The notes: generated by a model from the letters alone, not told the origin. DNA of 56,867 nucleotides from Candidatus Heimdallarchaeota archaeon (GCA_030629105.1 DAOVPS010000001.1:1-56867); one strand, 5' to 3'. Positions 1,680 through 7,397 are shown, counted from the first letter of the stretch. Numbers and translations: made by a program.

Positions 1680-2828
1680 ATGGAAGGTACAAATATGGAT
1701 TTGGATTCCTCAAAAGATATTGAACAAGAAGCTCTTTTTGATAAAAAAATAGGTATTAAAAATATATTAACTGAGGATATAGCACAATTCCATTTGAAAA
1801 TCGCAGGAAGTAAAATCTCTGCAGCGAGAATCGAAGGATCATTTGATAATTATCTTGAATACAGTAAGCTGCTGAAAAACAATTCCTGGGAGAAAGGATT
1901 AAACGTTTCTCTTGACCAAGTCACTCTTTATCCATTTCATCTTCAAATTGCTTATGTACAAACTTTTGAAAAATTGCTGGGAAATGCCCTAAAAGTCTCT
2001 AATAGAGCAAAATATCTACGAACAATTATTTTAGAATTAGAAAGAATTTCCTATCATCTCTCATTCATTGGTGTTTTAGGAAAGGGTGTCTCTTATCCAA
2101 TTCTGTTCTCTAAAGCAATATCATTACGAACAATTATTCTTGAATCTATAACTGATATAACAAATTCTTCCGATAGTAACTCCTACATCAATTTTGGAGG
2201 AGTTTCTAGAGATATTGATATGAAACTAACTAATAGATTACTTTCTACTTTAGAGATTATCAATAAAAATAGTATGAAACTGAGAAAGAAAATTTCCAAA
2301 AACTCCCTACTAAAAGGATTATTGCAAGATGTAGGATTTTTATCTCGAGATTCAGCTAGAAAATTATCTTTAGTAGGACCGATAGCAAGAGCCTCAGGAG
2401 TAACAGTTGATGTCAGAAGAACAGATCCTTATGCAGCTTATGAAACGGTACAATTCAGTGTTCCAGTGTATGATTCTTGTGATCTCTACGGAGAAATAAT
2501 GGTTCGACTTGATGAAATCATTGAATCTATATTTATATTGAAACAACTTCTATCAAACCTACCAGAAGGAAGTTTAAATCAAGAATTTACTCATAATCAG
2601 ATTCCTGCAAATAATGCTGTTATGCGTATTGAAACTCCATCTGGAGAGCTCTTTAGTTTTACAATAAGTAAGAAAGGTACACTTGCTGAAAAACCAGTAA
2701 ATTATAGCATTGTCTCTCCAATTAAATTAAATATTCAAGGAGTTCTTTCCAGACTTTCTGGTGAGTCATATGAAAATGTATTAACTATTTTACTGTTAAT
2801 TGGTGAAGGCTGGAATAGTTTCATTTAA
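1680..2828 (+). CDS. NuoD / group-4 [NiFe]-hydrogenase large-subunit homolog lacking the metal-binding cysteines
   Basis: Blocks RAKYLRTIILELERISYHLSFIG, NFGGVSRDI, VGPIARASGVTVDVRRTDPYAAY, DLYGEIMVRLDEIIESI and ETPSGELFSF match the conserved NuoD/HycE/MbhL core. Where the RxCGxCxxxH and DPCxxC ligand motifs would sit, the sequence reads LYPFHLQIAYVQ and LIGEGWNSFI. The whole protein has a single Cys. Confidence 0.7.
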   Translation: MEGTNMDLDSSKDIEQEALFDKKIGIKNILTEDIAQFHLKIAGSKISAARIEGSFDNYLEYSKLLKNNSWEKGLNVSLDQVTLYPFHLQIAYVQTFEKLLGNALKVSNRAKYLRTIILELERISYHLSFIGVLGKGVSYPILFSKAISLRTIILESITDITNSSDSNSYINFGGVSRDIDMKLTNRLLSTLEIINKNSMKLRKKISKNSLLKGLLQDVGFLSRDSARKLSLVGPIARASGVTVDVRRTDPYAAYETVQFSVPVYDSCDLYGEIMVRLDEIIESIFILKQLLSNLPEGSLNQEFTHNQIPANNAVMRIETPSGELFSFTISKKGTLAEKPVNYSIVSPIKLNIQGVLSRLSGESYENVLTILLLIGEGWNSFI

Positions 2829-2848
2829 GAATTCCAAAAATTAGTGTT

Positions 2849-3883
2849 CTACTCTTTTGCTGGTTGATTTTCAGAAGGCTTATTAGCTAATTTTGTCAGT
2901 TTTTTAATTGATTGAATAAATTTTCTCAAGTTTTTTCGTTCAAATATTAAGAAAATTACAAATTGAAGTGAAATTCCACCTATAATCCAATATACTGAAC
3001 CCAGCTCTCTTCCGGGCTCTTCAAATGAACTAGATACAATATCAATACTTTTCGTAATAACAAGTATTCCTTCCGCCGCATTTGGAAAACTACTTATTTG
3101 TTTCACCTTTGAAATAGTCTTTCCGGAAACCAAAAGACCATCGGTATACCCATAAGAAAGCATAGTTTGGTTTTCGAATTCACCAAAATAGACATACTTT
3201 CCTAGGTAATCAGATAAGATGAATTCTTCATATTGTGTAACATTCGAAAGTAAATTAGTTACATTACGTATTCCCTCAAACGTTGAGATAAGACTATAGT
3301 TTGTAGCTTGATAATTAAATGCTTTAATGGTGAGATTTTCCCCAATTGTAAGATTAGCTTTTGTCCAGAAAAATACTGTAGTATTTATCGGATAATAAGT
3401 TGTGTTTGTTGAAGAAGAGATTTGATAGGTATAACTATTGATTGTTATATTATCTTTTGTTAAAATAAAGTGTTCAGTAGAGTGTTTTTGAATAGTTTGG
3501 TTTTCATTTATCATTAATTCCTCATAGGAGGAATAAGTATAATGCTGCTCTATATCAAATTTTATTTCATCATCTGTTACATTTATCACCTTTATTGAAA
3601 TCCCCGTAATTTCTTCTATTGACCATCTCAAAGCAGTATAATTAACAACTTCCAATGTTTGATTATCATTTTTTTCCGAATATAATCCCGTTATATTTCC
3701 TTCGAAATTAAAATTATTAGCTTCTTCATAAGAGAAGATTTCATCTATGTTAAAGAGATAATGATTTGCAGAAGTAGAGTCATCTTGGAATTTTATACCA
3801 GAAATTGAGCTTGTAAATATAATTAAAATGCAAAATATTACAGATAACAGAGTTTGATGTATTCGTTTGTAATTTTTTTGCAT
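2849..3883 (-). CDS. membrane-anchored surface protein rich in N-glycosylation sequons
   Basis: N-terminal signal/anchor LLSVIFCILIIFTSSISG and C-terminal TM helix VYWIIGGISLQFVIFLIF followed by a basic tail. About 14 N-x-S/T sequons (NIT, NQT, NYT, NVT, NTT, NLT...). No family recognised. Confidence 0.6.
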   Translation of the reverse strand: MQKNYKRIHQTLLSVIFCILIIFTSSISGIKFQDDSTSANHYLFNIDEIFSYEEANNFNFEGNITGLYSEKNDNQTLEVVNYTALRWSIEEITGISIKVINVTDDEIKFDIEQHYTYSSYEELMINENQTIQKHSTEHFILTKDNITINSYTYQISSSTNTTYYPINTTVFFWTKANLTIGENLTIKAFNYQATNYSLISTFEGIRNVTNLLSNVTQYEEFILSDYLGKYVYFGEFENQTMLSYGYTDGLLVSGKTISKVKQISSFPNAAEGILVITKSIDIVSSSFEEPGRELGSVYWIIGGISLQFVIFLIFERKNLRKFIQSIKKLTKLANKPSENQPAKE

Positions 3884-4051
3884 GGCTTATTAACTCTCAC
3901 ATTAGCAAATTCAATTGTTGCGTCAAAAGATTTTTAGCATTTCTCAATTAATCATTTAAATATTAAATATCCTTAGTAATAAAAGGGAAAAACTAGATTA
4001 AATTTCCTTCTATATATAGCAACAAAGGATAACAAATTGGAGAAGTGTTAG

Positions 4052-5107
4052 ATGTTTGGTCCATGGTTTGAAATCGTAATATTCCCAGGATTTGTCTTTA
4101 TAGTCATTCTAGCAATTTTAAGTGAACAAATAAATAGTCGACTTAATTCTCGCTTCTACTTCAAAACAGAAAAAACACCAATGTTTATTCCGATTGTTGA
4201 AAACTTCAAGTTTTACATAAAAGGAGAGGAAGAAAGTACAAGTAGAAATTCTATTCTCCAAGGAATAATACTAGTTCTTATGGTAGCTTTACCTTTATTT
4301 GGTTCCTTACTATTACCAATCAATCTTTGGAGATCATTTGAAAATTTACAAATACCAAACTGGATAGGTGTTTATGGTGAGTATGCCGGTACAAACGAAG
4401 GAATTGTAGGAGTAATCACTTTTGAAGGGGACCTTTTATTTCTATTTGCAATAATACTGTTTTTTGGTTTCCTCACATTTTTTGTTCAATACTTGAATAA
4501 AGAGCATTTCACGAAAGAATCTTTAACAAAGACTTTCACTTTTATGATTTTTGACATTCCATTATTGTTTGTTTTAATTGGTCCAATAATCGCTAAGCGA
4601 TCTTTAAGTTTAACAATTCTTGCAGAGGATATTCGTAGGATTGTAAATTCCAATTTAACTTTTGGATTAGTATTTTTACTTCCAATAGCTGTTGTTGTTT
4701 CGTTGTTTTGTCTAGCAATGAAATTTGATCAACCTTATTTTGATCGAATTAATACTGATAGCATTATTAGAAGTAATGCTCCTACTCCTAAGAATTGGAA
4801 ATTAAATTTTTGGAATCTCTCCATGAGACTAATGGAAGTTGTCATCGCAGGCTTAATTGTCTCTGTCTTTCTAGGAGGTTCCTATTTACCAATACCTATC
4901 CATGGAAATTATCAGATATTAGCCAACACTGCGAATTTTGTTTTCAAGTGTCTTGCTGTATTGATGATTACAACAATAATTAGAGCATTAAGACCCCGTA
5001 TGAAAGCAAATCAAACATTCAATTTTGCTTTGAAAATACTTACACCTCTTAGCTTTCTTTCGATTCTTCTAACTGGGGGTTATATTGGTTTAGTTGGTAT
5101 AAATTGA
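4052..5107 (+). CDS. divergent NuoH/HycD/MbhM-like polytopic membrane subunit
   Basis: About 8 hydrophobic helices. The C-terminal block IIRALRPRMKANQTFNFALKILTPLSFLSILL parallels the NuoH signature (R.SLPR.RYDQ...WK.LLPL). MKFDQPYFD and FLGGSY parallel the PFD..EAE.EL and FFGGW blocks, but the acidic residues are replaced. Confidence 0.5.
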   Translation: MFGPWFEIVIFPGFVFIVILAILSEQINSRLNSRFYFKTEKTPMFIPIVENFKFYIKGEEESTSRNSILQGIILVLMVALPLFGSLLLPINLWRSFENLQIPNWIGVYGEYAGTNEGIVGVITFEGDLLFLFAIILFFGFLTFFVQYLNKEHFTKESLTKTFTFMIFDIPLLFVLIGPIIAKRSLSLTILAEDIRRIVNSNLTFGLVFLLPIAVVVSLFCLAMKFDQPYFDRINTDSIIRSNAPTPKNWKLNFWNLSMRLMEVVIAGLIVSVFLGGSYLPIPIHGNYQILANTANFVFKCLAVLMITTIIRALRPRMKANQTFNFALKILTPLSFLSILLTGGYIGLVGIN

Positions 5108-5162
5108 ACTGAGCAAATCATTACGTTAATAAAACATGATGCAATAATCCTTCTTGTATTAG

Positions 5163-5792
5163 GTGAAGTTTGCCATGGTAAGCGACTCATTTCAATTAGC
5201 AATGTTCATTATTTCACCAATCATACTTATTCTAGATGCCATTGTAATTACAACAGGCATTTTTAGAAAGCTAATCAGAAAAGAAAAAGAAGATGTTGAA
5301 GAACGTGATAGACTTTTCTCTATGGTAGATATTATGGAGAAAATTGGCATCGGACTTGGCATTCTTACTTTAATTCTTGCAGGATTTCTTGCAGTTAACA
5401 TTCCACAAGCTGGTGCATGGTTAGGTTGGTTTAATCCAATTACAATTATTTTTCTAATTATTATTGGTTGTTTATTAGCACTAAGAACATTAGATGATAC
5501 ACCTGTAACAGCTCTTATTGCTATTCTCGCAGGTTTATTAGGTGCAGCAGTTTTCGCAGCGGTTTTCGGTGATGCTGGTTATGGCAAGTGGATTTATTTT
5601 GCAGTGTTCTTGGCAGTTGACATAATTGTCTTTATGTTAGTACGAATGTTAACAAAACAAATGGCTATGATTGGAAGAATTCTGAATTGGTTCCCTGTAG
5701 CAATTATTGTAGTATTTGCTTGTTTAGGTTGGGGAATATTTCAAATAGTTTTGTTAGTTATTCATGGTGTAAATCTGATAATACTGCCATAA
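5163..5792 (+). CDS. polytopic membrane protein of unknown function
   Basis: 209-aa ORF with a GTG start and 5-6 hydrophobic helices. Same strand as the NuoH-like gene, 55 nt downstream of it, and followed by a hairpin plus T10 terminator. Confidence 0.55.
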   Translation: MKFAMVSDSFQLAMFIISPIILILDAIVITTGIFRKLIRKEKEDVEERDRLFSMVDIMEKIGIGLGILTLILAGFLAVNIPQAGAWLGWFNPITIIFLIIIGCLLALRTLDDTPVTALIAILAGLLGAAVFAAVFGDAGYGKWIYFAVFLAVDIIVFMLVRMLTKQMAMIGRILNWFPVAIIVVFACLGWGIFQIVLLVIHGVNLIILP

Positions 5793-5918: not shown

Positions 5919-7397
5919 CTAATAATCATCTTCGTCGTCGTCGTCATCTTCTTCTAAAGCATCCATTTCAGCAATCTCTTCAGCAATTTCGTCGCCTGCT
6001 CCACCATATTCTTCTTCTAGTGCTAGTTCGACTTCGTCAGTTTCTTCAATTTCCTCTGGTTCTTCAAAGAGATCTTCAGGAATTTCCTCAACTAATTCAG
6101 ATGCGTCAGTTTTCAAGGCAATCATGAATCTACGAGCTAATAAATCATAAAACTTAGTTAGTTCACCGAGATCATTGGCTTCGTAAAATTCACCTCTACC
6201 TATTTCGGATAATCTTTTCAATAATCGGTTATCAGCTTCTCCTAAGCCTATAGTATAAAGTACTGTATTTGGATAATCTCGTCCGCATTTTCGAGCGATT
6301 GGTACAGGGTTTATGCCTAAACCATTGCCTTTGTTTGGTTGTCCATCTGTTAAGAGAACAATCATTGCTGGATTCATTTTCCCAGTTATAGAATTTGGCT
6401 CAAATTTTGCGGTCATTTCGTAAGCTTGTTGTAATGCCCCACTCATAAAAGTAAGACCACCACCTGTTGAACATCTTTTTGAAACATAATCTGCAATTAT
6501 TTCTAAACCAGCAGATTTTGCTTGTCCAGTACATGCAATGACTGGTGTTGGGCTCCCTGTTCCATAGTCTACTTCGAATACATCTACGTCACCAGCAAAG
6601 CTAATTATGGAGAGCTGTTCTCCCCATCCTCGAGATACTTTCTGAGATAAGAAAAGTAATGTAGCTAAAGCTGCACCTTTAATTCGTGAAACTTTCTTCT
6701 CATCGAATTCATCTAAGAGATTTTCTAAGTCTTTTCCACCCTTTAAGCCACGTCGAAGACCTTCGACTGCTGTCCCTGTTCCTTTTACAACCATATCTTC
6801 TTTACTCATAGAGCCAGATACATCAAGAACTAAAACTGCATTAAATGACATTTCGCTTGCAGGAACCAATTGTACTTCAATTTCTTTTCCAGAAGGATCG
6901 ATAATTCCTACTTCATCACCTTCAATTTCTGGATCTGATTCTAAGAAGCTTATTTTGACATGGCCACAACCTGCATCAGGCCAATCGACTTGTAAATTTC
7001 TGTAAATTGGGCGATTTCTGATAACCGAAGTCATCTCTTCGAAGTTTTCTAGAATATAAGAAATACATTCTTCAACTGGTTGACCTTCTAAAGGTTCAAT
7101 TCCAAATTTTACTCGAGTAATGGGCTCTCTTTTCAAATGAGCTTTTCTAACCTTTACTCGATCACCATCACTGATATTGGCAGAATCTAATATTCCGTTG
7201 TCTACTGCAATGGTTTCAATCTCAACTTCATCGTTCTCCAATACCTGTACTGCACAGCTATCTTCAAATTCATTGATGAGTTGAATTATATCAAAATCAT
7301 CTACACCGATTCTTTCCATATCACGTTTATTCAGGTAGGATCTTCCATCGATTTCACCTACATTTATGACTGAAATATCAATAATTTTCTCAACCAT
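5919..7397 (-). CDS. CDC48-N (VAT-N)-like domain fused to a von Willebrand A domain, with an acidic tail
   Basis: The N-terminus SYLNKRDMERIGVDDFDIIQL...ISDGDRVKVRKA resembles the CDC48/VAT N-terminal double-psi barrel. RPIYRNLQVDW...VKISFLESDP then resembles the second N-subdomain. The vWA MIDAS DxSxS motif is in LVLDVSGSMSKED, and LLTDGQPN is also present. The last ~60 aa are Asp/Glu-rich, ending DDDDDEDDY. Confidence 0.75.
   Translation of the reverse strand: MVEKIIDISVINVGEIDGRSYLNKRDMERIGVDDFDIIQLINEFEDSCAVQVLENDEVEIETIAVDNGILDSANISDGDRVKVRKAHLKREPITRVKFGIEPLEGQPVEECISYILENFEEMTSVIRNRPIYRNLQVDWPDAGCGHVKISFLESDPEIEGDEVGIIDPSGKEIEVQLVPASEMSFNAVLVLDVSGSMSKEDMVVKGTGTAVEGLRRGLKGGKDLENLLDEFDEKKVSRIKGAALATLLFLSQKVSRGWGEQLSIISFAGDVDVFEVDYGTGSPTPVIACTGQAKSAGLEIIADYVSKRCSTGGGLTFMSGALQQAYEMTAKFEPNSITGKMNPAMIVLLTDGQPNKGNGLGINPVPIARKCGRDYPNTVLYTIGLGEADNRLLKRLSEIGRGEFYEANDLGELTKFYDLLARRFMIALKTDASELVEEIPEDLFEEPEEIEETDEVELALEEEYGGAGDEIAEEIAEMDALEEDDDDDEDDY

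Follow-up and report, generated by a model that had tools for sequence, protein, structure and literature searches.

We analysed a 56,867-nt stretch of DNA from a Candidatus Heimdallarchaeota archaeon (DAOVPS010000001.1, hereafter the window), which is contig C82 of a 2.9-Mb metagenome-assembled genome (MAG) that is 83% complete and has a GC content of about 32%. Three of its genes encode a homolog of NuoD and of the [NiFe]-hydrogenase large subunit (D-like), a degenerate homolog of NuoH (H-like) and an orphan membrane protein (T). This trio is a paralogous, cofactor-less derivative of the interface between the large subunit and NuoH in group-4 hydrogenases, joined to a new membrane protein and maintained by selection in one family. 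The four open reading frames of the original prediction, which had been made by a model from the sequence, were all present as described. It had proposed a minimal D/H module; the unit, however, consists of D, H and the novel six-transmembrane (6-TM) protein T, with an antisense glycoprotein gene in three lineages. T had been overlooked; it is strictly conserved and belongs to the unit as its third gene rather than being a chance neighbour. The features are listed in Table 1.

The D-like protein keeps the fold of the large subunit and has lost its ligands

The proposed homology of D-like to NuoD and the [NiFe] large subunit was borne out by its match to the Pfam family Complex1_49kDa (PF00346), with an E value of 2e-40 and a score of 139 bits against a cut-off of 24. 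The score against the NCBIfam NuoD profile was 180 bits, compared with an equivalog cut-off of 360, and the NCBIfam FpoD profile was also matched, far under its cut-off, at positions 23-359 of 372. Comparison with the true large subunit of the genus by hhalign gave 99.9% over residues 31-375. The AlphaFold2 (AF2) model of D-like, built from a 49-sequence alignment, had a predicted local distance difference test (pLDDT) value of 91.3 and a predicted template modelling score (pTM) of 0.91, and Foldseek placed it on NuoD, 49-kDa and HycE chains with template modelling scores (TM-scores) of 0.79-0.85. By profile score and by full-length fold, D-like thus belongs to the NuoD/[NiFe]-large-subunit superfamily. 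The shortening of its N-terminus that had been predicted did not hold up: residue 60 of D-like aligns with residue 65 of Thermus Nqo4 and residue 28 with residue 49 of Mycobacterium smegmatis NuoD, and the AF2 model shows an N-terminal three-stranded sheet at residues 19-52, with disorder in residues 1-14 only. The relatives of D-like are mostly annotated from the second methionine (position 1695 of the window), which gives 377 aa.

Exactly one cysteine is present in D-like, as had been noticed; it is C267, within a D.CD..GE motif. Alignment to solved NuoD structures and to the true large subunit of the genus showed that the four positions of the Ni-Fe cysteines are occupied by V81, Y84, G377 and about S380, so that the RxCGxCxxxH and DPCxxCxxH/R motifs of a catalytic group-4 large subunit are missing. 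The quinone-site residues of NuoD are Tyr87 and, in the loop that joins beta1 to beta2, His38 (Thermus Nqo4 numbering). His34, His38, Arg84 and Tyr87 of Nqo4 correspond to N28, E32, D79 and T82 of D-like, respectively; only N28 is conserved in the clade, and E32 and T82 vary across it. D-like therefore departs from a quinone-reducing NuoD in these His/Tyr residues, in its equivalog score and in its position in the tree (below). Since the fold is kept and the ligands are replaced, D-like can bind neither Ni-Fe nor the quinone head-group in the known way. The 61 invariant columns of the D-like alignment are clustered at residues 208-286 and largely coincide with structural positions conserved across the superfamily. 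The D-like copy of a sister MAG (G084:C128:16232-17377; L031:3001-3963) carries an in-frame TAA at codon 321, which reflects either a pseudogene or an assembly error.

The H-like protein keeps the NuoH fold and has lost the acidic coupling loop

The 351-aa H-like protein had been proposed to be a homolog of NuoH, and it matched the Pfam NADHdh profile (PF00146) at positions 6-297 of 298 (E value 3.6e-17, 63 bits against a cut-off of 27), exceeding the gathering score across the whole domain. Full-length comparison with the true H subunit by hhalign gave 98.7%, and about eight hydrophobic segments were found. Its score against the NCBIfam NuoH profiles was 36 bits, while their equivalog cut-offs are at least 305 bits.

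Inspection of the conserved positions showed that H-like keeps E25, R30, R34, P47, K53, the FEGD motif, D168 (at the position of the SYE Glu) and D231 (the PFD Asp), as well as FLGG, P315-R316, Q321 and K328. The C-terminal ...PR...Q...K..P.. motif of the NuoH type is retained and the acidic PEAExEL...EYS loop is replaced, both as originally described. The acidic cluster of the loop between TM helices 5 and 6 and the EYS and AEY glutamates are replaced; of the carboxylates of the acidic loop and E-channel expected in a functional NuoH only D231 and D168 remain, and the other positions read N/T..., NW and MR. H-like also has a loop insertion of about 23 residues ahead of FEGD, a motif that it shares, as SFEGD, with the true H subunit of the genus. 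H-like is thus a protein of the NuoH fold that retains several of the charges marking it, the TM5 carboxylate among them, and in which the acidic TM5-6 coupling loop is gone.

T is a third member of the unit

The gene for T lies directly 3' of the H-like gene in every locus examined. A GTG start at position 5163 gives a protein of 209 aa; the identical database protein has 205 aa, so that the ATG at position 5175 is likely the true start. The 44 homologs of T are all from Heimdall/Asgard archaea, and none carries a Pfam domain. The AF2 model shows six helices at a pLDDT of 66. There are 72 invariant columns in the T alignment, including D25, D153 and Q194, which lie inside helices.

We also considered T as a disguised subunit of the NuoA/J/K or MbhI type and rejected this. 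Comparison with the small subunits of the genus's true complex by hhalign gave probabilities of at most 2.6%, a Pfam scan of all 15 members of the T family returned only noise, and no relative of T was found by Pfam, by PDB sequence profiles or by a Foldseek fold search.

Distribution and phylogeny of the trio

In about 20 loci, drawn from various MAGs and metagenomes, the three genes of the trio lie side by side on one strand wherever the contig end does not cut the locus. In locus L039 the D-like gene has a 4-nt overlap with the H-like gene, and in locus L041 a gap of 5 nt separates the two. DNA of the window turned up again in metagenomes from cold seeps, the subsurface and marine sediments.

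In a set of 400 Asgard genomes, only the 11 species of the GTDB genus of the window, and all of these, gave D-like scores above 240 bits. The whole trio is present in these 11 genomes, while a second large subunit, of the hydrogenase type, is present in 8. An exhaustive profile search of 1.84 billion proteins recovered the D-like clade as 11 representatives at 50% identity, with scores of 340-575 bits; below the clade the score drops from 340 to 213 bits, where the matches are ordinary four-Cys hydrogenases. The syntenic site of a sister genus (G091) carries H-like (30% identity) and T (64% identity). Seven genomes from other Heimdall families lacked T.

Phylogenetic analysis with FastTree showed that D-like is monophyletic (support of 100), sits on a long stem and falls on the hydrogenase side of the split from a Cys-less NuoD-like clade; its placement within group 4 is a polytomy among four-Cys large subunits. 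The idea that D-like arose as a paralog of the D subunit in the genus's own hydrogenase was rejected, as the tree does not place the two as sisters.

Selection, rates and transcription

The ratios of nonsynonymous to synonymous substitution (dN/dS), calculated by the Nei-Gojobori method on close pairs, were 0.16-0.44 for D-like, 0.10-0.22 for H-like, 0.06-0.12 for T, 0.15-0.30 for the glycoprotein and 0.02-0.06 for the neighbouring gene with CDC48-N and VWA domains. Identity to the window across the genus was 38-86% for D-like, 44-94% for H-like, 60-97% for T and 88-98% for the VWA neighbour. Comparison of genome G081 with G082 and G087 gave identities of 80%, 75%, 84% and 69% for the D, H, B and L subunits of the true hydrogenase, respectively, and of 39-41%, 48-50%, 65-66% and about 45% for D-like, H-like, T and the NuoL-like protein described below. 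Relative to the genuine group-4 hydrogenase, the trio evolves at two to three times the rate. These ratios and identities indicate that the trio genes are functional and yet fast-evolving, D-like being the least constrained; the trio is intact and under purifying selection across one Heimdallarchaeial family.

The RNA data available were short Logan metatranscriptome contigs, which are sparse and come from related strains. Contigs from marine-sediment runs matched H-like, T and the VWA gene at 93-99% identity to the window, and one matched the glycoprotein gene at 88%. H-like and T are thus transcribed somewhere.

Hydrogenases and missing subunits in the genome

D-like and H-like are the sole PF00346 and PF00146 matches in their own genome. 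In line with the original prediction, which had seen none nearby, the window holds no NuoB, NuoC or antiporter-like gene; in a whole-genome Pfam scan, the matches to PF01058, PF00329 and PF00361 all lay on other contigs. Both PF01058 matches proved to be small subunits of two cytosolic group-3 hydrogenases (Table 1). Beyond these, no NuoB-like gene was found in the genome by Pfam, by tblastn or with a hidden Markov model (HMM) of the genus's NuoB, and no NuoA gene by Pfam, tblastn or custom HMMs. A NuoI-like gene could not be singled out, with a custom HMM, among the many ferredoxin-like open reading frames. The suggestion of a non-redox role is well supported by this lack of a NuoB-like gene and of a distinguishable NuoI-like gene, together with the loss of the Ni-Fe cysteines and of the quinone-site His and Tyr.

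The second large-subunit homolog mentioned above, of about 424 aa, lies in the three genomes inspected (G081, G082 and G087) inside an operon of the order NuoA-B-C-D-H-I-J-K-L-M-N, and that of G081 carries both CxxC motifs (RVCGICSHVH and DPCFSCEDR). It is the complex-I-like group-4 hydrogenase that has been described for Heimdallarchaeia (10.1101/2024.07.04.601786). No trace of this operon was found in the genome of the window or in its close relatives G084 and G089, which are 83%, 85% and 69% complete, respectively; at these values its absence is suggestive. A complete canonical operon elsewhere, unrelated to the pair, had been named beforehand as an outcome that would speak against a distinct D/H module. 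Such an operon, with its own D and H, does exist in sister species, while the genome of the window lacks it. Because the operon of the sister species has its own D and H, the D-like/H-like pair is a separate paralogous module and not a piece of that operon.

The trio could also provide subunits that replace or regulate those of the lineage's genuine group-4 [NiFe]-hydrogenase by exchanging with them in the complex, for instance in an inactive or assembly-intermediate form. The true four-Cys large subunit carried by 8 of the 11 genomes and the SFEGD motif common to both H proteins would fit such a role. We consider it very unlikely, however: the genome of the window and two close relatives have the trio and no trace of the operon, D-like is not sister to the genus's own D, and identities with the true subunits reach just 31% and 22%.

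Candidate partners and the proposed assembly

The suggestion that the trio borrows partners encoded elsewhere found indirect support, in that an orphan NuoC-like gene and an operon of NuoK-, NuoL- and NuoN-like genes share its restriction to the family and its fast evolution. The NuoC-like protein scored 29.6 bits against PF00329 (cut-off 22.5), and its PDB profile matches were to NuoC and MbsK. Orthologs of it (41-90% identity) occurred in the sister genus and in 10 of the genus's 11 genomes; the other genomes in a set of 83 from the class gave scores of at most 27 bits, to ordinary NuoC genes only. A large database contained 28 clusters of NuoC-like sequences, all Heimdall/Asgard, and dN/dS was 0.12-0.27. 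About 185 nt downstream of the NuoC-like gene, on the same strand, there is a gene for a polytopic protein of 852-862 aa with a poly-acidic N-terminus of about 170 aa and no Pfam family; the two genes are syntenic across the genus.

The second candidate is a five-gene operon that encodes two small TM proteins, a NuoK-like protein, a 639-aa NuoL-like protein and a 553-aa NuoM/N-like protein, without MrpE/F/G. The operon is complete in G081 (L043:8840-13518) and in G083. Every one of the 11 genus genomes, and the sister genus, has an ortholog of the NuoL-like protein (above 480 bits); scores elsewhere were at most 160 bits, and dN/dS was about 0.13. Alignment with true L/M/N subunits, MrpA and MbhH showed that the L-like protein keeps only the TM5 Glu and the TM7 Lys, and that the N-like protein has lost all four of the canonical channel residues, among them the Glu of TM5 and the Lys of TM7 and of TM12. 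In the genome of the window, the C, D, H, K, L and N types are each represented exactly once, and all are restricted to the family, quick to evolve and degenerate in function. NuoA and NuoJ were also considered as identities for the small proteins of the operon; the matches were not significant, a weak HMM match (E value 0.018) of the 115-aa protein to an 'x140' subunit being the only link. Next to this operon, the PolD large-subunit genes of G081 (L043:13603-16724) and of the genome of the window (C178:4223-7327) diverge right after '...AAKRRNC', where the G081 gene reads the intein-like 'FPGDTEVLV...'; this suggests an intein in one species and not in the other.

D-like, H-like and T would, in our preferred reading, form the membrane-interface module of a lineage-specific, cofactor-less machine of the group-4 hydrogenase/complex-I type. 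Co-distribution, rates and the loss of most canonical functional residues at these loci suggest that the trio may assemble with the orphan NuoC-like protein and also with the five-gene membrane module, giving an Mbh/Ehr-like assembly without both Fe-S subunits, NuoB and NuoI. As it would lack these subunits, the proposed assembly could not transfer electrons. Its role would have to be non-redox, most likely that of a structural or conformational membrane complex, or else that of a passive or gated ion path through D168 of H-like and D25/D153 of T; it is unlikely to act as a hydrogenase, as a quinone reductase or as a canonical proton pump. We give the trio an even chance of being the membrane-interface module of such a dispersed, redox-dead complex of the Ehr/Mbh kind. 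The broader proposal, that the family maintains an entire complex-I/Mbh-like assembly in 'dead' form (C-, D-, H-, K-, L- and N-like proteins with new small membrane proteins), encoded at three loci and with a purely structural, membrane-organising or gating role, is a tentative one and on the doubtful side.

Several observations weigh against the preferred reading. The three loci are never adjacent, and the link between them, made of phyletic co-occurrence and similar rates, is circumstantial; whole-genome synteny is high in the family. NuoB is normally part of the D/H interface, and without it the ability of a complex-I-like head to assemble at all is in question. No relation to NuoA or NuoJ could be detected for T or for the pair of small K-L-N operon proteins. 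D-like was not found in the sister genus, where only ordinary homologs were seen and the contig ends 500 nt upstream of H-like. Given the 83% completeness of the genome, a partner or an operon may have been missed. Finally, D-like may be dispensable, with its dN/dS of up to 0.44, the in-frame TAA in G084 and no metatranscriptome contig even at 80% likeness, although the sparseness of these related-strain data makes the last of these uninformative.

The premature stop and the missing D-like transcripts would also be expected if the genes were decaying remnants of a scattered, ancestral second hydrogenase operon with no current function, as would fast evolution and the loss of all canonical catalytic and most transport residues. 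This is the least probable of the explanations weighed here, since the genes are intact in more than 20 loci that span roughly 36-98% identity, dN/dS (0.06-0.44 in the trio) is well under 1, 50-72 columns are invariant in each protein and the AF2 model of D-like is highly confident.

The physical linkage of the genes, which is strict and confined to D, H and T (plus the glycoprotein), would fit a small stand-alone complex, apart from the C-like and K/L/N-like proteins, in which H-like and T form an ion-conducting or sensing core, D-like is a cytoplasmic cap and the glycoprotein takes part in some lineages. T is the most conserved of the three and has invariant intramembrane Asp and Gln residues, H-like keeps its TM5 carboxylate, and both are transcribed in sediment metatranscriptomes. 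We nevertheless find a stand-alone complex rather unlikely: it would be mere coincidence that the C-like and K/L/N-like proteins match the trio in phyletic pattern and in degeneracy, the model of T is of low confidence with no fold match, and we know of no precedent for a NuoD/NuoH pair that works without NuoB.

Neighbouring genes

The gene that separates D-like from H-like was described beforehand as encoding a glycoprotein (G), and its product does have an N-terminal signal anchor (residues 12-30), a C-terminal TM helix (residues 296-314) and 14 N-x-S/T sequons. No Pfam or NCBIfam family was found for G or T. Homologs of G (37-85% identity) occur only at the site between D-like and H-like and nowhere else in those genomes. 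They are present in 4 of the 12 family genomes, which make up the four-species subclade of the window, and in two more distant loci (L040 and L042), and are wholly absent from the remaining family genomes. Since its homologs are restricted to this site, G is a locus-specific, lineage-variable accessory gene. The CDC48-N/VWA gene on the other side of the trio is unusually conserved, by the identities and dN/dS values given above, for a neighbour of such fast-evolving genes.

Table 1. Coordinates of the trio, of neighbouring genes and of related genes on other contigs and loci
Feature	Coordinates	Strand	Evidence or remark
D-like: Cys-less NuoD/group-4 [NiFe]-hydrogenase large-subunit homolog, soluble, 382 aa	1680..2828	+	PF00346, hhalign, AF2/Foldseek
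G: sequon-rich type-I surface glycoprotein, 344 aa, antisense between D-like and H-like	2849..3883	-	sequons, signal anchor, TM helix; no Pfam match
H-like: degenerate NuoH/HycD/MbhM-type polytopic membrane subunit, 351 aa, about 8 TM helices	4052..5107	+	PF00146, hhalign
T: orphan 6-TM protein, most conserved of the trio	5163..5792	+	adjacency, dN/dS, AF2
CDC48-N/VWA gene, convergent to the trio	5919-7397	-	follows T in every locus
G copies in other lineages	L040:5653-6714; L042:5677-6729		between D-like and H-like
Orphan NuoC-like protein, 136 aa	C155:10301-10711	-	PF00329
Five-gene operon: two small TM proteins, NuoK-like, NuoL-like, NuoM/N-like	C178:216-4137	+	PF00420 (NuoK-like)
Group-3 [NiFe]-hydrogenase set, cytosolic, 3b-like	C63:397-4448		FAD/NAD gamma and beta subunits
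Group-3 [NiFe]-hydrogenase set, cytosolic, Mvh-like	C146:3746-8708		beside HdrA and MvhD

Comparison with known systems

The energy-converting-hydrogenase-related (Ehr) complexes, said to have been defined by Marreiros et al. in 2013, are composed of the subunits EhrA/B/C/D/L/S. To our knowledge, all those described are encoded by a single operon and always include a NuoB-like small subunit (EhrS). The trio resembles them in its NuoD-like subunit without Ni-Fe cysteines, which occurs with a NuoH-like subunit, in having no electron-input module and in its presumed non-redox nature; if the proposed partners are real, the NuoK/L/N-like subunits would be a further likeness. It differs in that no NuoB-like gene is present, the genes are spread over three loci, the novel 6-TM protein T is obligatory, and the antiporter-like subunits, found only on C178 and not in one operon with the NuoH-like subunit, are without most channel residues. 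As the NuoB-like subunit and the single operon are lacking, we treat the set as a variant of the Ehr kind and not as a member. A literature search returned no paper that combines Ehr with Asgard archaea.

Comparison with the group-4 hydrogenases of Heimdallarchaeia (4j/4m/4p/4q; 10.1101/2024.07.04.601786) showed that they occur in the same organisms and belong to the same superfamily, D-like falling on the hydrogenase side of the tree and H-like carrying SFEGD. These hydrogenases, however, have NuoBCDI and the membrane arm in one operon, an intact four-Cys site and slow evolution, whereas the trio is Cys-less, is without NuoB/NuoI, evolves fast and persists even in genomes that lack that operon. 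The preprint makes no mention of a Cys-less set.

The MBH and MBS complexes of Pyrococcus (PDB 6CFW and 6U8Y) provide MbhH, the best solved relative of the N-like protein, while the C-like profile matches MbsK and D-like matches MbhL and MbsL. A D/C/H head with an Mrp-like arm would have the Mbh architecture; MBH and MBS differ in having their own Fe-S subunits (MbhJ/N, corresponding to NuoB/NuoI), an active site and one operon. With complex I, the trio shares the NuoD fold (TM-scores of about 0.8-0.85 to NuoD chains) and the full-length NADHdh match, and differs from NuoD and NuoH of that complex in the missing quinone-site His/Tyr, the missing acidic TM5-6 loop, scores far under the equivalog cut-offs and a phylogeny on the hydrogenase side.

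Public records label the D-like and C-like genes 'NADH:ubiquinone oxidoreductase subunit D/C', so that metabolic reconstructions of Asgard archaea risk wrongly counting them as respiratory capacity. Within the family, the trio is conserved more universally than the genuine hydrogenase is. Cofactor-less relatives of complex I, the Ehr complexes, are known but not understood, and the present set would be a more extreme case, with no Fe-S-carrying subunit, most pump residues gone, dispersed genes and a novel, obligatory membrane partner. If its parts do form one complex, the scaffold of complex I can be retained for a non-energetic purpose, and the complete 'dead' assembly, if true, would amount to a respiratory complex in pseudoenzyme form, found in a lineage with kinship to the eukaryotic ancestor.

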